Positions 28,534 through 35,376 of a stretch of 35,511 nt of DNA are shown here, piece after piece. How positions within the stretch are numbered: position 1 is the first letter of the stretch; every line of letters starts with the position of its first letter. The notes beneath the pieces are model-generated. The model was given only the letters and a program-made list of their open reading frames with translations. It ran no database searches and was not told the DNA's origin. The position numbers were made by a program, and so were the translations under genes. Origin of the DNA: an uncultured Deferribacteres bacterium (GTDB taxonomy: Bacteria > Zhuqueibacterota > Zhuqueibacteria > Zhuqueibacterales > Geothermadaptataceae). The stretch covers positions 1 to 35,511 of the forward strand of contig CAXHAT010000074.1 of NCBI GenBank assembly GCA_964014485.1, read 5' to 3'.

Positions 28534-28589
28534 CCCGCTGCGCGGGAAAAATAACCAAATGACTCAAATGATCAAATAGCCAATGATTG
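28534..28589 (-). promoter_or_regulatory. DGR IMH-like tract and hairpin downstream of VR2
   Basis: 25 nt (28565-28589) identical to 32286-32310 and absent from the TR; hairpin CCCGC-GCA-GCGGG at 28534-28546. Confidence 0.75.
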
Positions 28590-30023
28590 TCCGGAACGAA
28601 CAGCGCGGACGAAGACGCTGAAGTCGACAAGATCGCTGCCGCAATAACCGAGGTCGAAACCGACAACCCAGACGTCCGACGCGGCGCGCTTGTCCGCAGT
28701 CCAAATCCACGATTGCGCTTGTTCGAACAGTGGATTGATGTATAAGCCGTGTTCATTCGGCTCCGGTTCCATCAATGACATGGCTTCTTCTAGCGTGGGC
28801 AAGCGCCAGTCGTCGAATCCGGCGAATTCGGCCTGATTCAGGCTGTCGATGTATGCCTGCGCCTGAACAAAAGTCATCCTTTCAGTCGATCCGCCTTGCT
28901 GCCAGGTCAGATTGACGGCTTCGTCAACAATAAGCTGCGCACCCTCGCGCTCGATGAACTTGAATTTGTTCTCGACTCCGGCGCCGCGCGGGTTCCACAA
29001 TCTGTCATAAAAGCCTTTGTTTCGCAGCATCTCCGTAAAAGCGGAAACTTCGGAAATTGTTGTCGGTTCGGATCGCAGCAAAGGTACGCTTGCGTGCGGC
29101 GTTTTATCCTCGGCTTTTCCAAAATCCGGCATGATCGCCACGGCAAGATAAAAAATCGTTACCAGCATCATCGCCATGAAACCGAGCGTGCTCACCGGCT
29201 TTTCGTCAACGTTAAAACGTTTGCGAATAAACCTGAAGGTAAAATTGAGCTTGAGCAATAACTTGACCGCGAGACCAGACACGGCGTAGAGCCAAATCCA
29301 GACCGAGGTAAAAAAAGCCGTGTAAAAGGAAATCGAGAAAAACGGAAACGGCTCGGAGCGGAAGACGTCCACCCAAATGAGAGATTGGCTGGTGAGCGGC
29401 AGCACTTCTTCGAAGTAGACGGAGATCAACGACACGAACGATTGATCCGGCACGAAAAGCATGTCCCAAATCGATCCGTACAAGCCGGTCTTGATAAAAA
29501 TCGGTATGATCACAATCGCGATTAAGCCGGTTATGACGGCGTCGGTGAGAAGAAGAAGCACATGCTTGAAAAAAGACTGCGTGGAGGACATCCACTTGAT
29601 GACGAGACGGGTTTCAAGGAGGGAGAGGTAGTCCGGGATCAGGTTGAGCAGAAGGAGCACAAGCAGCGCGTTGAAAAGATAGCGCGCTTCAAATTCAAAA
29701 GCGCTCAATTCACTCCAACGTACAGCGGCCCAGATGAGAAACATGAGCGTAAAGGAAATTGCCGAGGCCAGACAAGAGCGCCAGAAACATTTCCAGGCGA
29801 GGTGTTTTTTGCCGAACACGGCGTCGAAGGTCTCAGCAAAAGTGCGCGGCCATCCGCCGAGGCTCTCGGGCGTTTTCAGATTTTTGAGCCACCGCGTCAC
29901 AGACTGCTTTGTCTCGGCGTTAAGCACGTCCTCGGCTTTTTCAAAAATACGGTGTATGCCGTAAGAAACGCCCAGCCAGGAGCCGAGGGCGATCAAAAAG
30001 GAAGAATTCAGGAAACCGTCCAT
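28572..30023 (-). CDS. DGR target 2: multi-pass membrane protein with C-terminal DUF1566/Lcl (CLec-fold) domain
   Basis: About 6 hydrophobic segments in the first 300 aa; C-terminal LTWQQGGS...AGFDDWRLPTLEE...WIWTAD...VRAVRSG; 3' end carries VR2. Confidence 0.88.
   Translation of the reverse strand: MDGFLNSSFLIALGSWLGVSYGIHRIFEKAEDVLNAETKQSVTRWLKNLKTPESLGGWPRTFAETFDAVFGKKHLAWKCFWRSCLASAISFTLMFLIWAAVRWSELSAFEFEARYLFNALLVLLLLNLIPDYLSLLETRLVIKWMSSTQSFFKHVLLLLTDAVITGLIAIVIIPIFIKTGLYGSIWDMLFVPDQSFVSLISVYFEEVLPLTSQSLIWVDVFRSEPFPFFSISFYTAFFTSVWIWLYAVSGLAVKLLLKLNFTFRFIRKRFNVDEKPVSTLGFMAMMLVTIFYLAVAIMPDFGKAEDKTPHASVPLLRSEPTTISEVSAFTEMLRNKGFYDRLWNPRGAGVENKFKFIEREGAQLIVDEAVNLTWQQGGSTERMTFVQAQAYIDSLNQAEFAGFDDWRLPTLEEAMSLMEPEPNEHGLYINPLFEQAQSWIWTADKRAASDVWVVGFDLGYCGSDLVDFSVFVRAVRSGQSLAI
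28590..28682 (-). repeat. DGR variable repeat VR2
   Basis: 93-nt ungapped match to the TR (31528-31620) with 18 mismatches, all at TR adenines on the coding strand. Confidence 0.96.
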
Positions 30024-30032
30024 TTATTCGCC

Positions 30033-31568
30033 TTATGGCAAGTCGTCCCAGGGATATTCTACGATCAAATACAGCACCCGTTCTTTTGTTTTGTACCGCT
30101 CGCGTCCGGTTTGGCGGACAATGACTAATGGAACGCGCGATTTCCGCAAACGCTCGGCGATTTTGTCTAAACAACGGGCGGGAAAGCCACAGCCGTATTG
30201 ATAACCGCGCCATTTGGCGTGTAACACAAGCCCCGCCGTTTGCGCCAAAATTTTTGCATCCCGGCCAAACGCTTCATAATAACACCCGATTTCAATAAGC
30301 CGGAGATGTTGGGGAAATTCCTTGCGCAGCCAGGTGATTTGCTGTTTCAATGTTTGTTTTTTGCGCAAGCCCCGGTCGCGGCGAACGAGCCTGCGCGAAG
30401 ATAATCGGTAGAATTTTTCCAGAAAATTGAATTCGCCCCAGAGTTTTTCGAGTAGTTTATGCGTTTGGGCATGTTTGAAATGGCCGAGGTAAGAATTCAT
30501 CGCGGCAAGAAGCGTTGCGAGCGTTTTTTCATGAAAATGATAAACGATGTAATGGCCGCGATTCGCTGCAAGTTTGTCTCGCACTTTTCTCAAACGCGCT
30601 GTTACATGTCCAACTACTCTGCGACGCACCAATAGATAGTGTGACCGAACTATAAACCCTGCAAAATCAACACCGCCTGAGACAGGCGCAATGCGAGAAG
30701 CTTGCTCTCGTAAACTCAACTGGAGGCGCTCTGCAAGGAATGCCGCGATCTTTTCTTTCCAGTCTCGCAATCTCGAAGGATCGAGATCAAGAAGAATGAA
30801 ATCATCAACGTAGCGGAGATAATAGCGGCATTTGAGCTCGTGTTTGACAAATTGATCCAGCGCGTCCAGGTAGACGTTGGCGAAGAATTGACTGGTGAGA
30901 TTACCGATGGGCAGGCCGCATCCCGGTTTTGCATGGAAAAGCGACTTATGCGGCGGCAATTTGAAACGCAGATTTTCACGATCCATCATGCAATAGTCCG
31001 CTGTTGGATCGTGAAAAACGACGATGCGCAGCAACCAGAGCAACTCCGGCGCTAAGGAACGCTGCGTCAGGCGCTCGAACAGCCGCCGCCGGTCGACGGA
31101 CATGAAAAAATTGAGAATGTCGAGCTTAAGATAGAAGGCGCGGCGGGAGCCGTTGCGGGTAATTTTGCGCAAGAAGCCTTGCAATGCAAATGCGGCGGCG
31201 TGCGTTCCCTTGCCGGGGCGGCAGGCGTAGGAGTGGTGAACAAATCTTTTCTCCCAGACCGGTGAGAGTGCATTATAAATCAGGTGGTGGACGATGCGAT
31301 CCCGAAACGCAGCCGCGAAGATTTCCCGGCACTTGGGCTTTTCGGTATAAAAACAGATCGAAGTTGACGGCTTGTAACGACGTTCTCGCAGTTCGTTGAC
31401 GAGCGTGAGCAGGTTCGCTTCCGCATCGATCTCAAACGCCAGCGCGCTTACCGAATTGCGCTTGGTTCTCCGGCAAGCCAGCCAGGCGCGGTACATCCGC
31501 GGGAAAGTAAACAGCGACGGACGATTATCCGGAACGAACAGCGCGGACGTAGTTGTTGTTGTCGACAT
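30033..31568 (-). CDS. DGR reverse transcriptase with C-terminal MutS-domain-I-like fusion
   Basis: FRDRIVHH, YLKLDI..FF.S, GLPIGNLTSQFFAN (DGR-type SQ motif), YLRYVDDF (YVDD at 30801-30812); start uncertain (31697, 31568 or 31496). Confidence 0.95.
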   Translation of the reverse strand: MSTTTTTSALFVPDNRPSLFTFPRMYRAWLACRRTKRNSVSALAFEIDAEANLLTLVNELRERRYKPSTSICFYTEKPKCREIFAAAFRDRIVHHLIYNALSPVWEKRFVHHSYACRPGKGTHAAAFALQGFLRKITRNGSRRAFYLKLDILNFFMSVDRRRLFERLTQRSLAPELLWLLRIVVFHDPTADYCMMDRENLRFKLPPHKSLFHAKPGCGLPIGNLTSQFFANVYLDALDQFVKHELKCRYYLRYVDDFILLDLDPSRLRDWKEKIAAFLAERLQLSLREQASRIAPVSGGVDFAGFIVRSHYLLVRRRVVGHVTARLRKVRDKLAANRGHYIVYHFHEKTLATLLAAMNSYLGHFKHAQTHKLLEKLWGEFNFLEKFYRLSSRRLVRRDRGLRKKQTLKQQITWLRKEFPQHLRLIEIGCYYEAFGRDAKILAQTAGLVLHAKWRGYQYGCGFPARCLDKIAERLRKSRVPLVIVRQTGRERYKTKERVLYLIVEYPWDDLP

Positions 31569-31620
31569 GATTGTTGTTGCAATTACCGTTGTTGAAATTG
31601 ACAACCCAGACGTCCGACGT
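31528..31620 (-). ncRNA. DGR template repeat (TR)
   Basis: AAC/AAT-rich, reads SDVWVVNFNNGNCNNNHVDNNNYVRAVRSG-stop in the VR frame; lies between avd and the RT core; differs from both VRs only at adenines. Confidence 0.96.
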
Positions 31621-31660
31621 TCTTGTCCCGATACTTGTTGGAGCTGTTCCAGCACGTTTG

Positions 31661-31687
31661 CTGGATTCCCGCCTGCGCGAGAATGAC
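31661..31687. repeat. Single REP-like arm inside the avd-TR spacer
   Basis: Minus strand GTCATTCTCGCGCAGGCGGGAATCCAG, same family as the arms at 14260, 25875 and 35443. Confidence 0.75.
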
Positions 31688-31811
31688 ATGGAAGCAACGA
31701 TTTGGAACGGCTCCGCTCGACTGCACCACTCGCGCTTTACGGCAACAGGCGCGTCGGATCAAAGATACCCTGTTTGCAATTGCAACAGGGTGACCGGGAT
31801 GCACAATCATC

Positions 31812-32213
31812 TTATCGGCGCGCTCTCGTTTCCGGCTGAGCGCCGGAAAAAGATTCTGGCCGGTCGCGTTTTTTCATCGTTTTTAGCCAGCCTTCGTTCT
31901 GTTTGCACAGCTCCGCCACCTGATTGATGCTGTGTTGAAAGGAATTGAAGTTGGCAAACGCTTTCAAATCTTTGCACAGGCGGATCGTTATTTTCAAATC
32001 TTCCAGCCTGTCCCGGCAAAGCAGCAGACCGGGCGCCTTGTCTTCGGCGTCATTGGCTTGCCGGATTAGGCGCAAAATTTCACGCGAGATTTGGCGCAAT
32101 TCCGCGCCAACGGTGTATTTGTGATAACGGCTGAAATTGCGCACGATTTTTTCAAAGTAAAGGGTCAGATCATAGGCTTGTTTGTAGATGGGCAAATGTT
32201 CGTACCTTGCCAT
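31812..32213 (-). CDS. avd: DGR accessory variability determinant (four-helix bundle)
   Basis: Basic 133-aa helical protein MARYEHLPIYKQAYDL...FSRYHKYTVGAELR...LCKQNEGWLK; immediately upstream of TR-RT; GGAGAG RBS before ATG 32213. Confidence 0.88.
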   Translation of the reverse strand: MARYEHLPIYKQAYDLTLYFEKIVRNFSRYHKYTVGAELRQISREILRLIRQANDAEDKAPGLLLCRDRLEDLKITIRLCKDLKAFANFNSFQHSINQVAELCKQNEGWLKTMKKRDRPESFSGAQPETRARR

Positions 32214-32252
32214 TGCTCTCTCCGGTTTTGCGCCATATTTCAAATTTTCAAA

Positions 32253-32310
32253 CCCGCTGCGCGGGAATTAAAGAATCAAATAACCCAAATGATCAAATAG
32301 CCAATGATTG
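32253..32310 (-). promoter_or_regulatory. DGR IMH-like tract and hairpin downstream of VR1
   Basis: 25 nt (32286-32310) identical to the tract after VR2; hairpin CCCGC-GCA-GCGGG at 32253-32265. Confidence 0.75.
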
Positions 32311-35300
32311 TCCGGAACGAACAGCGCGGACGTAGTAGTCGCTGACGACACGAACGTAGCTGCAAACACCGAAGTCGAAAAAGACAACCCAGACGACCGA
32401 CGCGTCGCGCTTGTCCGCAGTCCAGATCCAGCTCTGCTTTTGGTCGAATGCCGGATCGATGTACAGATCGCCGTTCTTCTTTTCCGGCTCCATTAGTGTC
32501 ATCGCTTCTTCTAGTGTCGGGAGACGCCAGTCATCAAAACCGGCGACTTTGTCCCGGTTCAGCTTTTCCACATACTCCTCGGCGTTCGTATAATTCATCG
32601 TATCCGATGATCCGCCCTGCTGCCAGGTCAGCCCGCTCGCTAAATCCGACGCCAATTTTTCGCCGTTCGCTTCGAGAGGCATGAGCGCGGTGCTCACACC
32701 TCGCCCTTTCTTGTTCCAGTCCGAGTCGAATAGCCCGACCTCCGCCAACATCGTTTTAACCTGATCAACTGAAAGCGTTTGCGGCTCACTGCGCAGTTTT
32801 GGCGGCTCAACCCCCAACGCCGCCAGCACTTTCGGCAGGCCGTCTGGATTCTTCAACCCGGTACAGCGGTTCAGCTTGAGTTGTTTTAATTTCGGCGTTT
32901 TGGGCAAACTTGCGAGGTCTTTTAACCCGGTAAAGCCGCTCAGGTTCAAGCGTTCGAGCGCAGGCAGTTCGGGCGGCAGGAAGCTTACATCTTTCAAATT
33001 GGCGCATTCACTGAAATCCAACGATGCGAGAGCGCCGAACTGTCGGGCAAAATACGGGAAGACTTCGCGGTGAAAATCCGAATCATCGAGAGAGTCCTTG
33101 AGAATTTCGTCAAAAACCGACGTGCGGGAATCACCGGCGTAGCTTGCCAGAACCGTGCGCGCCGCTTCATCGCCAATCAATTTGAGAGCGTGTACGCAGG
33201 CCGCAGCTTCAGGAATCGTGAGCTGTTCCCGCCAACCCAAATGCGTCGCAGCCAGCGTTCCCGCCGCCGCAATCGCCTTGGCGTCTTCCTTGTTTTTCGG
33301 CGGAATCAGCGTCGTCAAACTTTCGTCCACCGTACCCCGTAGCTCCCGGTCAACAACCACTGCCGTTTCCAGACAGGCGACGGCGAGCAAGTGAAAGTAG
33401 TGTCGCCTCTCGGCGTCCCGGTCTCCAGCTTCTACAAGATTACGAATGATTTTGTCGGCGGCTTTGGGCGCGGCGTGCCCGGCGGCGAGAATCACGACTT
33501 CGCGCCACTGGTCGTCATGCGCATTCTGATGCAAAAAACCCAGGTCGCCTTCGTCAATAATCGCCTTCGCGGCCAAAAACTCCTGAAACGTGCGGTGGGC
33601 GAAATCCATCTCTCCTTCCACTGGCGATTGCAACAGCCCGCTGCGCTCCACCAAAAAAGCGCGAATGTTCTTCGCTTCGTCTTGAATTCCGAGATTCGGG
33701 AGTTGCTTTTCAAAACGCTCATCGGCCTCTTCAAATGAAATCCGCGACCAGCCGTTGCGCATCATCCAAAGCGCCAAATCTTCCAGCAAGGCCCGTTTTC
33801 GGGTGTAGTTGAGTTCAGTGGGCGCGTGCGTCGTGTCCACGCCCACGCTCTGTTCCCTGCCCCGGCGCTCCAGAATCATCTCGCAGCAGGCTTCATAAAG
33901 ACGCAGGCGCTCTGACGGAACATCCTTTTTTCGCTCGCGATGCAAGGCGCAAACGGCGGAGCAGAGCAGCGGATTGGCGGTCAGATTGCGCAATGCCAAT
34001 TTGGTTCTGATTTCGCTTTTCAAGCTTGCTTCCAGATCATCAAGTTCGGCCTTTTCGTCGTCGCGGAACAACTCCTTCTTCACCGCGCGATGCCAGTGCT
34101 CGATGAATCGGGTAATTTGCGTCAAGCCCATCGATTCAAAGGTGAATTCATTGAATCCTTCGCGGGCAAGACGGCCTTCTTCCATGGCGCTGGGTCGCGT
34201 CGTCACCACGAATTTTGTCTTTTGAAATTTCTTATTGCCGACAAGCTCTCTGAGCCATTCATAAACGCGCTCTCTTTGGTCGGGCGGCGTTTCATCCACG
34301 CCATCGATCAGAATGATCGCGCGTCCGGCGGCAAGCAATTCGCGCACCCAGCCTTTCGGCGTCTCTTCAGCGATAGTAGGTAGCAAATGTTCCACAAATT
34401 CCTGAGGCGCGGGCAAGTCGCGGTCGACGAATTTGCGCAAGTAAATGATGAAAGGCACTCTGTCGTTCAACGCGGCAAGCTCGCCCTGAAAGCGGTGCCC
34501 AGCGCACTGCACGGCGACCCATTTCACAAAAGTGGTTTTACCGCTGCCCGCCAATCCGCGCACTACTAAGCGGTCGCCGTAGTTCAAAACGCCGTCCGCG
34601 GCAACGACGAGATTTTCATCGGCTTCTTTTCTTGCGCCGCTTGACATGGAGAGACTAATGTACGCCACCGTCAAGCTGTGACGGCGGCTCCCCTGGCGCG
34701 TGACATCCAGGCCGACGAGCTTGATCTCGTCCAACGTTTCCACCAAGGTCTTACGGTAGTCTTCCTCAAACTGTGCGGCGGCGACTTCAGGATTAACCGC
34801 CTGGCTGCTTTCGCGAATTTTTCGCAGTTCATTGAGAACGCCGTCAACCTTGTGGAGCAGTCGATCTTCGCGCTTCAGCACTTCGGCGAACATATTCTCA
34901 TGAAAACTCGGCAGGCGCGAGGCGATCCCGACAACGTAATGGGCGCATTCCTTGAGCACGCGGTCGCAGAACGATTGCTCGGCTTCGGAAAAAGCGCGCA
35001 TTTTGTCGGCGCTTTCCTGTTGCAGCAAACGGTAAAGCTTGATTGGATCGAGATTGATTTCGGCGAGTTTCGCGGCGTCGATTTTGAGTTGATTCAAGAT
35101 ACCGGCGGCGGTTTCGGCGAGCAGCTTTCTCGTGTCGTCGTCCAGCGCTTGCTGCCGGAACACATGCTCAAGGTTTTTCGCCACTTTTATTGCGACGGCT
35201 TCAAACTGGCTGCGCCCCTGCCGCGCCGCCATGTCGCTGGAAACACGAGATTTCAGCAGATCAATAATTTCTCCGCCGAGTTCTTGTGGTAAACCAGGAT

Positions 35301-35376
35301 CGGGAAGCCAGAATTTCAGGATGGTTTTGGCGACCGCCGAGCCGAGGGTTGTGAAAAGAATGTCTAAAAGAGCCAT
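32293..35376 (-). CDS. DGR target 1: NLR-like protein (helical N-terminus, NACHT NTPase, LRR, DUF1566/Lcl CLec domain)
   Basis: Walker A GLAGSGKTT (34531-34557), Walker B IILIDGVDE, VVTTRP, NPLL, FAHRTFQEFLAA, WREV; about 3 LRRs (LASLDFSEC, LERLNLSGF, LKQLKLNRC); WRLPT domain ending in VR1. Confidence 0.92.
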   Translation of the reverse strand: MALLDILFTTLGSAVAKTILKFWLPDPGLPQELGGEIIDLLKSRVSSDMAARQGRSQFEAVAIKVAKNLEHVFRQQALDDDTRKLLAETAAGILNQLKIDAAKLAEINLDPIKLYRLLQQESADKMRAFSEAEQSFCDRVLKECAHYVVGIASRLPSFHENMFAEVLKREDRLLHKVDGVLNELRKIRESSQAVNPEVAAAQFEEDYRKTLVETLDEIKLVGLDVTRQGSRRHSLTVAYISLSMSSGARKEADENLVVAADGVLNYGDRLVVRGLAGSGKTTFVKWVAVQCAGHRFQGELAALNDRVPFIIYLRKFVDRDLPAPQEFVEHLLPTIAEETPKGWVRELLAAGRAIILIDGVDETPPDQRERVYEWLRELVGNKKFQKTKFVVTTRPSAMEEGRLAREGFNEFTFESMGLTQITRFIEHWHRAVKKELFRDDEKAELDDLEASLKSEIRTKLALRNLTANPLLCSAVCALHRERKKDVPSERLRLYEACCEMILERRGREQSVGVDTTHAPTELNYTRKRALLEDLALWMMRNGWSRISFEEADERFEKQLPNLGIQDEAKNIRAFLVERSGLLQSPVEGEMDFAHRTFQEFLAAKAIIDEGDLGFLHQNAHDDQWREVVILAAGHAAPKAADKIIRNLVEAGDRDAERRHYFHLLAVACLETAVVVDRELRGTVDESLTTLIPPKNKEDAKAIAAAGTLAATHLGWREQLTIPEAAACVHALKLIGDEAARTVLASYAGDSRTSVFDEILKDSLDDSDFHREVFPYFARQFGALASLDFSECANLKDVSFLPPELPALERLNLSGFTGLKDLASLPKTPKLKQLKLNRCTGLKNPDGLPKVLAALGVEPPKLRSEPQTLSVDQVKTMLAEVGLFDSDWNKKGRGVSTALMPLEANGEKLASDLASGLTWQQGGSSDTMNYTNAEEYVEKLNRDKVAGFDDWRLPTLEEAMTLMEPEKKNGDLYIDPAFDQKQSWIWTADKRDASVVWVVFFDFGVCSYVRVVSDYYVRAVRSGQSLAI
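32311..32403 (-). repeat. DGR variable repeat VR1
   Basis: 93-nt ungapped match to the TR with 18 mismatches, all at TR adenines on the coding strand. Confidence 0.96.

Follow-up and report, generated by a model that had tools for sequence, protein, structure and literature searches.

What is a mismatch-recognition domain of a DNA repair protein doing at the end of a reverse transcriptase? The question is raised by a diversity-generating retroelement (DGR) on contig CAXHAT010000074.1 of an uncultured Deferribacteres bacterium (GenBank assembly GCA_964014485.1), analysed here over positions 1 to 35,511 (hereafter the window, 35,511 nt in all). The reverse transcriptase (RT) of this element continues in frame past its thumb, and an earlier note on this DNA had proposed that the extension resembles domain I of MutS, the module that contacts the mismatch. 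This proves to be the case: the last ~105 residues of the DGR RT are homologous to MutS domain I. The function proposed below, more tentatively, is protection of newly formed DGR heteroduplexes from the mismatch repair of the host.

Translation of positions 31496 to 30036 on the minus strand gives 487 residues, stop-free from the thumb into the last ~105, and the tail residues, their coordinates and the location of the GCYYE motif are as the earlier note had them (Table 1). An alternative start near 31568, inside the template repeat (TR), is possible, and a database protein (P0002, 511 aa) has been called that way. The fingers and palm, which score above the RVT_1 cut-off of 29.6 bits, include LPIGNLTSQFFANVYLD and YVDD. 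The tail matches Pfam MutS_I (PF01624) over residues 384-469 (window 30090-30347), scoring 36.6 bits (E 5.6e-9) over the full protein, 40.3 bits when the last 125 aa are taken alone, and 39.9 bits in a whole-genome scan; the gathering cut-off is 20.6 bits. A phmmer search of the last 113 residues against all PDB sequences had a sole match, Thermus aquaticus (Taq) MutS (1ewq/1nne, 1fw6; E 2.5e-9), with IGCYYEAFG in the tail aligned to VGDFYECFG. This puts Tyr406 where MutS has the Phe of its Phe-X-Glu motif and Glu408 where it has the Glu, bearing out the Tyr-for-Phe replacement that had been read from the sequence. No match to MutS_II, III, IV or V was found in the 487-aa protein by Pfam at E values up to 10; that is, it lacks domains II-V, which define a canonical MutS and of which MutS_V is the ABC ATPase.

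That the tail is joined to the RT with no stop between them, also an earlier claim, agrees with the continuous reading frame and with a 1159-nt contig of a public sequencing run (X1; 29479-30637), which spans both the junction of thumb and MutS_I domain and the stop codon with 0 differences, although this run may be the window's own source, in which case the contig is not independent support. The public runs listed for the window are three of DNA, all from one study, and none of RNA; their contigs, of low depth, list no differences, joints or indels.

Structure prediction gives the same identification. An AlphaFold2 (AF2) model of the last 113 residues, built from an alignment of 103 sequences, has a mean predicted local distance difference test score (pLDDT) of 92.3 and goes three times through the order helix, two strands; GCYYE lies in the first of its hairpins. 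A Foldseek search found 59 PDB matches to the model at E ≤ 0.001; among the matches listed, all are MutS, MSH3 or MSH6, with template modelling (TM) scores of 0.69-0.78 normalised to the query (0.78 for E. coli 1e3m_A; E 8.2e-8 for 1ewq_B). The full-length RT, modelled in AF2 from a 92-sequence alignment, reached a pLDDT of 93.9 (90-95 in the linker blocks) and a predicted TM score of 0.87, so that the MutS_I domain is confidently positioned relative to the RT. The best PDB match to the RT part is the Bordetella phage DGR RT (8ub7_A, E 1e-23, TM 0.87 normalised to the 328-residue target chain).

The confident placement of a domain fused in cis, immediately past the thumb and with its mismatch-contact motif conserved (see below), invites one explanation in terms of the polymerase itself: the domain might grip the nascent RNA:cDNA hybrid with its A:N mispairs and stabilise mispaired ends, favouring extension and processivity. 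Against this, the Bordetella RT (bRT) performs adenine mutagenesis with no MutS_I domain (8ub7_A), and the solved complexes of MutS domain I, among the matches listed, hold DNA rather than an RNA:DNA hybrid. In addition, free-standing forms of the domain exist, both in a locus described below (L059) and as the MutS-like (MSL) genes reported in the available passages of Wu et al. (2018), so the domain need not keep a fixed position relative to the RT. A helper function at the polymerase step is considered unlikely.

The fusion is far from rare, as became apparent once DGR RTs were surveyed for it, a step the earlier note had suggested. An apparent rarity of the tail (three proteins in a word-indexed search) was an artefact of the index. 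When 1.84 billion representative proteins were searched exhaustively by HMMER, the 113-residue tail matched 104 of them at E ≤ 0.001, and a full-length search recovered a whole clade. A Pfam scan of all 104 found RVT_1 in nine (seven over the cut-off), and two more, P0003 and P0004, are recognisable from their sequences as remnants of RTs. The others include four full MutS proteins (domains II-V are visible in P0054, P0080, and P0082), two Prim-Pol fusions, and four giant ArdC-N/DarA/methylase proteins; the remainder are mostly short. The whole RT as query retrieved 7476 proteins at E ≤ 1e-20; among the best 120 of these, 52 carry a precomputed PF01624 label, while phmmer with the tail detected the domain in 109. 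Of the 11 it missed, five bear the Pfam label and others are truncated.

At the level of loci, 79 from species-representative genomes were located by RT motifs and scanned with a hidden Markov model of the tail. The tail lies inside the RT open reading frame (ORF) in 43 (four of them weakly) and in a separate ORF in three, and is absent from 33, mostly in small candidate-phyla genomes. The three separate ORFs are not alike: one overlaps the RT end (L057), one lies 1.2 kb downstream of the RT (L059), and the third is the host's real mutS (L081). By record title, the fusion hosts belong to many phyla, among them Desulfobacterota, Nitrospirota, Gammaproteobacteria, Acidobacteria, Verrucomicrobia, Caldithrix, and KSB1-type metagenome-assembled genomes (MAGs).

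In an alignment of the 109 RT-fused tails, Gln386 is present in 108, Gly437 in 106, and Arg473 in 105. Gly404 and Glu408 are each found in 105, with four gaps each, so that every ungapped row (105 of 105) retains Glu408. At position 406, 66 rows have Tyr and 38 have Phe; at position 407, 60 have Tyr, 33 Phe, and six Cys, again with four gaps each. Judged by this alignment, the residues corresponding to the mismatch contacts of MutS are the best conserved in the tail, and the motif appears to be under clear purifying selection.

Four loci have a free MutS_I-like ORF of ~110 aa upstream of the RT: L014 (4868-5203), L017 (1-417), L021 (2176-2496), and L037 (3007-3342). Their RTs also end in a divergent MutS_I-like tail, which in L021 reads Y-W-E; the free ORFs of L014, L017, and L021 have the motif G-x-F-M-Q, with Gln for Glu. 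In a tree of the domain (67 rows, 115 columns), which is poorly resolved, with long branches and 15 of 63 inner branches open, the four free ORFs cluster with canonical MutS and apart from the RT-fused tails. The tree was set aside as a test of a single origin of the fused domains, or of their relation to free MSL proteins, its resolution being too poor.

The co-occurrence of free and fused copies in these four loci could mean pairing, and bears on a second alternative, that the MutS_I fold has been reused for docking or oligomerisation (with Avd, another RT or a host factor), the motif being kept for the sake of the fold. The domain is indeed confidently packed in the full-length model. However, both the invariant Glu and the position that is always aromatic correspond in MutS to residues that contact DNA rather than to core residues, and the PDB contains E38 mutants of folded E. 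coli MutS. A docking or structural role is regarded as very unlikely.

The preferred reading, held tentatively and at rather less than an even chance, is that the tail binds the mismatch-rich heteroduplex of cDNA and target and, having no ATPase, hinders its reversal by host MutS and MutL. Mutagenic retrohoming would pair adenine-mutagenised cDNA with the variable repeat (VR), giving a heteroduplex of ~95 bp with some 19 or more mismatches. An RT-tethered MutS_I domain would arrive with the cDNA and bind the mismatched or distorted duplex. Having no means of building an ATP-driven sliding clamp or of recruiting MutL, it would then compete with host MutS, and more heteroduplexes would escape an all-or-nothing reversal to the parental sequence. 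In this it would act alongside Avd, not replace it.

Several of the observations are counted in favour of such shielding: the identity of the tail as MutS domain I, the conservation of the motif, the retention of the domain across the clade, the absence of MutS domains II-V, the active type of the DGR, and the presence of MutS and MutL in the host. So is the constant pairing of MSL genes with avd in the literature. A further one comes from Bacteroides, where, in the available part of a preprint (10.1101/2024.11.15.621889), deletion of mutS raised VR mutagenesis ~5- to 10-fold with an unchanged substitution pattern, which its authors interpret as all-or-nothing repair of heteroduplexes. The earlier note had suggested that the domain binds the heteroduplex, shielding it from repair or aiding integration. 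This is a reasonable and plausible proposal in the light of the [Y/F]-x-E conservation, the host MutS and MutL, and the mutS result of the preprint, with all of which it fits.

A number of points weigh against shielding. A literature search for experimental tests of Msl or of the RT-fused domain returned surveys and mentions only. A single domain would face ~19 or more mismatches, of which one recognised mismatch suffices for repair, so that simple occupancy may be insufficient. DNA binding by MutS domain I alone, without the clamp domains, is weak. In the full-length model, Tyr406 and Glu408 may be either exposed or packed against the RT. The Bordetella bRT (328 aa, 8ub7) has no MutS_I domain, and the Bordetella phage DGR is independent of MutS, according to the passages available of Wu et al. 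(PMC5758913), citing earlier work. In a reconstituted E. coli system, deletion of mutS left the reporter unchanged (PMC12875486); this reporter carried an 18-nt insertion, per its authors no MutS substrate.

The distribution of host MutS is of limited help. MutS_II was detected in 39 of 42 fusion-bearing genomes, as against 8 of 33 with related fusion-less DGR RTs, but among genomes of at least 2 Mb the figures are 38 of 41 and 6 of 8. The gap being nearly gone at that size, the association is mainly one of phylogeny and genome reduction (small genomes of the candidate phyla radiation type). As it is largely explained by phylogeny and genome size, it is kept only as consistent with shielding. 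Three fusion genomes have no MutS_II match; these are MAGs of no stated completeness.

The host genome itself (8.4 Mb in 465 contigs) encodes a canonical MutS (contig C18; MutS_I 150 bits) and a MutL_C domain (contig C208). A genome-wide Pfam scan for MutS_I gave three matches only, the host MutS and two RTs, and thus no further match on the window contig (C74) that could represent a free-standing MSL-type ORF. The second of these RTs belongs to another DGR of the same layout, on contig C135; it is 57% identical to the window RT and carries a MutS_I tail with the motif G-N-Y-Y-E. One of its targets, of 410 aa, combines Lcl_C with a weak nucleoside 2-deoxyribosyltransferase-like N-terminus, and its avd product falls just below the cut-offs of two families (bAvd, 38.8 bits against 40; 23S_rRNA_IVP, 33.4 against 33.8). 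Two more distant RT-like frames in the genome, on C94 (27160-27945; 37% and 34% identity, in two pieces) and C60 (5940-6725; 29%), have no MutS_I match.

The shielding idea can be taken a step further, though with less confidence than the basic proposal. Conceivably, the RT-tethered domain I is an element-encoded anti-mismatch-repair decoy, acting in cis and kept by a DGR lineage in bacteria proficient in MutS and MutL, sometimes accompanied by a free MutS_I-like protein, the two together mimicking in two parts the DNA-binding end of the MutS dimer. If so, it would explain efficient DGR diversification in repair-proficient hosts, and would offer a small, transferable domain with which the yield of targeted mutagenesis by DGRs or retrons could be raised with mutS left in place. 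The stakes are clear enough: a DGR must install cDNA that differs from its target at many adenines, and host repair cuts its output 5- to 10-fold in the accessible part of the Bacteroides preprint. An RT-borne mismatch domain with a conserved motif, carried by a large proportion of environmental DGRs, is an obvious candidate for coping with this barrier.

The element that carries the domain is a complete DGR, encoded entirely on the minus strand, with an upstream NNH1-NACHT-leucine-rich-repeat target, bAvd, TR, RT, and a second Lcl_C target (Table 1). The separate avd gene mentioned in the earlier note is confirmed, at 50.3 bits against a bAvd cut-off of 40. Within TR 31528-31621, all 19 differences between TR and VR1, and likewise all 19 between TR and VR2, fall at TR adenines; differences elsewhere are confined to the repeat ends, and VR1 and VR2 differ from one another. 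With a DGR-type RT, the adenine pattern, and Avd all present, the element is, as far as its sequence can tell, an active-type DGR.

Table 1. Coordinates of the window DGR and related features (positions are those of the window, or of locus L083 where so marked).
Feature	Coordinates	Strand	Details
DGR RT fused to MutS_I-like domain	30033..31496	minus	487 aa from MYRAW; stop codon 30033-30035
RT fingers/palm (Pfam RVT_1)	30654..31334	minus	residues 55-281; E 1.2e-14, 55 bits
MutS domain I-like module	30057..30350	minus	model residues 383-480 (helix 383-393 through strand 470-480)
GCYYE motif (G404-C405-Y406-Y407-E408)	30273..30287	minus	counterpart of the MutS G-D-F-Y-E mismatch-contact hairpin, from alignments to Taq and host MutS
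Target gene 1	32293..35376	minus	1027 aa; NNH1-NACHT-LRR (leucine-rich repeats) and C-terminal Lcl_C (C-type lectin-like) bearing VR2
VR2	32306..32404	minus	3′ end of upstream target gene
avd	31812..32243	minus	143 aa; PF22296 bAvd, 50.3 bits
TR	31523..31621	minus	29 adenines in the examined 104-nt stretch
Target gene 2	28572..30023	minus	483 aa; hydrophobic N-terminal part and C-terminal Lcl_C bearing VR1
VR1	28585..28683	minus	3′ end of downstream target gene
ATTTG element	window 28548-28577, 32277-32298; L083 2215-2244, 5803-5824	minus	
Second DGR (contig C135)	L083 2263-7639		598-aa Lcl_C target; avd; TR; RT with MutS_I tail; 410-aa target

The downstream target gene starts 10 nt past the RT stop codon, and its product appears, on reading of the sequence, to be a membrane protein. 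The upstream target is a NACHT NTPase of the STAND class (signal transduction ATPases with numerous domains), with an NNH1 N-terminus, leucine-rich repeats, and a diversified Lcl_C end; since VR2 lies in this end, the DGR varies what is presumably the sensing part of an ATPase of signalling or defence type. No HRDC match was found among the four neighbouring proteins scanned, a set that does not cover every small ORF. Between avd and TR (~31652-31690, minus strand) is an imperfect palindrome, GTCATTCTCGCGCAGGCGGGAATCC, resembling repetitive extragenic palindromic (REP) sequences. It has a summed depth of 42, compared to ~4-6 around it, and many public contigs continue from it into unrelated sequence, so that it looks like a dispersed repeat.

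The VRs have features of their own. Directly 3′ of all four VRs in the genome's two DGRs are three to four phased repeats of ATTTG plus 3-4 nt, which are absent after both TRs. The element overlaps the stop codon in one DGR and is 3′ untranslated in the other, indicating conservation at the nucleic-acid level; it is a candidate for marking the targets in this DGR lineage. Of 79 other DGR loci, 22 show the pattern on the RT strand (three as loose T-rich variants), and they include loci that have a MutS_I tail as well as loci that lack one. After the ATTTG element of both window VRs there is also an identical 13-nt hairpin, CCCGC-GCA-GCGGG (28534-28546 and 32253-32265, minus strand), for which the two matches compare with 0 expected from 100 shuffles. 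Its position presumably resembles that of the hairpin following the Bordetella phage VR.

These elements suggest a third alternative, that the domain helps integration or targeting by recognising or stabilising the distorted pairing of cDNA and VR, or some structure at the replication fork or the target 3′ end, its effect being to get the cDNA installed rather than to protect it later. A conserved ATTTG element after each VR and after neither TR, along with the window hairpin, would suit such a role, as would the heteroduplex intermediates and the effects of replication orientation on retrohoming described in PMC12875486 and in the available passages of 10.1101/2024.11.15.621889. But the 22 loci with ATTTG repeats fall across both classes, which unties the repeats from the fusion, and binding to a hairpin or fork is purely conjectural. 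As the repeats also occur in loci whose RT lacks the domain, they do not discriminate between mechanisms, and the specific idea that MutS_I recognises the VR-flanking repeat or hairpin was set aside. Overall, a part in integration is considered quite unlikely.

Two other products of the tail search deserve mention. P0033 (544 aa) and P0081 (536 aa) each have two N-terminal MutS_I stretches followed by a Prim-Pol domain, by their predicted domains another polymerase-type enzyme joined to a MutS mismatch domain. P0003 (446 aa) has lost the catalytic middle of the RT, its fingers region being joined directly to the thumb region, but keeps a MutS_I-like tail at 56% identity, followed by ~90 unrelated residues; it is probably a decayed element.

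How, then, does a tail of this kind compare with what has been described? The most obvious comparison is with MutS itself. The tail has the fold of MutS domain I (Taq 1ewq, E. coli 1e3m; MSH3 and MSH6; TM 0.71-0.78), with 32-34% identity to Taq MutS and 22-24% to E. coli MutS chains, and when aligned with the host and three other MutS proteins it shares the G-x-aromatic-aromatic-E hairpin, G-F-P, the helix with the conserved Gln, and the later Arg. It differs in ending before the TPGT linker into domain II; in lacking domains II-V, and with them the ATPase, the clamp, and signalling to MutL; in having Tyr for Phe; and in being C-terminal to a polymerase, where domain I is N-terminal in MutS.

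Isolated MutS domain I is also known from another mobile system, the polyvalent proteins of Iyer et al. (2017; PMC5512222), where, in the passages available, it is predicted to bind a DNA intermediate. Proteins of this type (P0024, P0029, P0066, and P0076) are among the matches to the tail, but their MutS_I domains have other partners (ArdC-N, DarA, methylases) and lie on another branch of the domain tree. The same passages give polyvalent proteins as the only occurrence of MutS-I outside MutS, which the DGR cases contradict, and contain no mention of MutS_I with Prim-Pol.

Among DGR components, the window RT shares core and thumb with the BPP-1 bRT (PDB 8ub7; 30% identity), which likewise works with Avd. 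The bRT, however, has 328 aa and ends past the thumb, while the window RT is ~110 residues longer, the difference being the MutS_I-like domain.

A DGR-encoded homologue of the MutS mismatch domain alongside avd is familiar from the MSL genes. In the available passages of Wu et al. (2018; PMC5758913) these occur in 16 of 372 DGRs and form Architecture D, a class in which avd is always present and an HRDC gene absent. Reviews repeat this description, and the accessible part of the Bacteroides preprint (10.1101/2024.11.15.621889) names Msl in three elements (Bfr, Bth, and Bun). These are free-standing ORFs (112-283 aa in the passages of Wu et al.), whereas the window domain is part of the RT ORF; and since free ORFs group with canonical MutS in the poorly resolved tree mentioned above, the fused domain may not simply be a fused MSL.

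The closest precedent comes from Wu et al. 2018 (NAR 46:11, PMC5758913), the available passages of which describe three related DGR RTs with a C-terminal MutS_I motif. The window RT resembles these in having an in-frame, MutS_I-matching extension past the thumb and an avd in the cassette. It differs, as far as those passages go, in that its match, instead of being “weak,” exceeds the Pfam cut-off, in the accompanying fold match, and in its Tyr at the stacking position. The novelty that the earlier note implied for the fusion is not supported, given this precedent and the commonness of such fusions in public data. The RT-MutS_I fusion is already known, and the window locus is one more example, no new kind of element, whose value lies in being clean and complete and in the two paralogous DGRs found in one genome.

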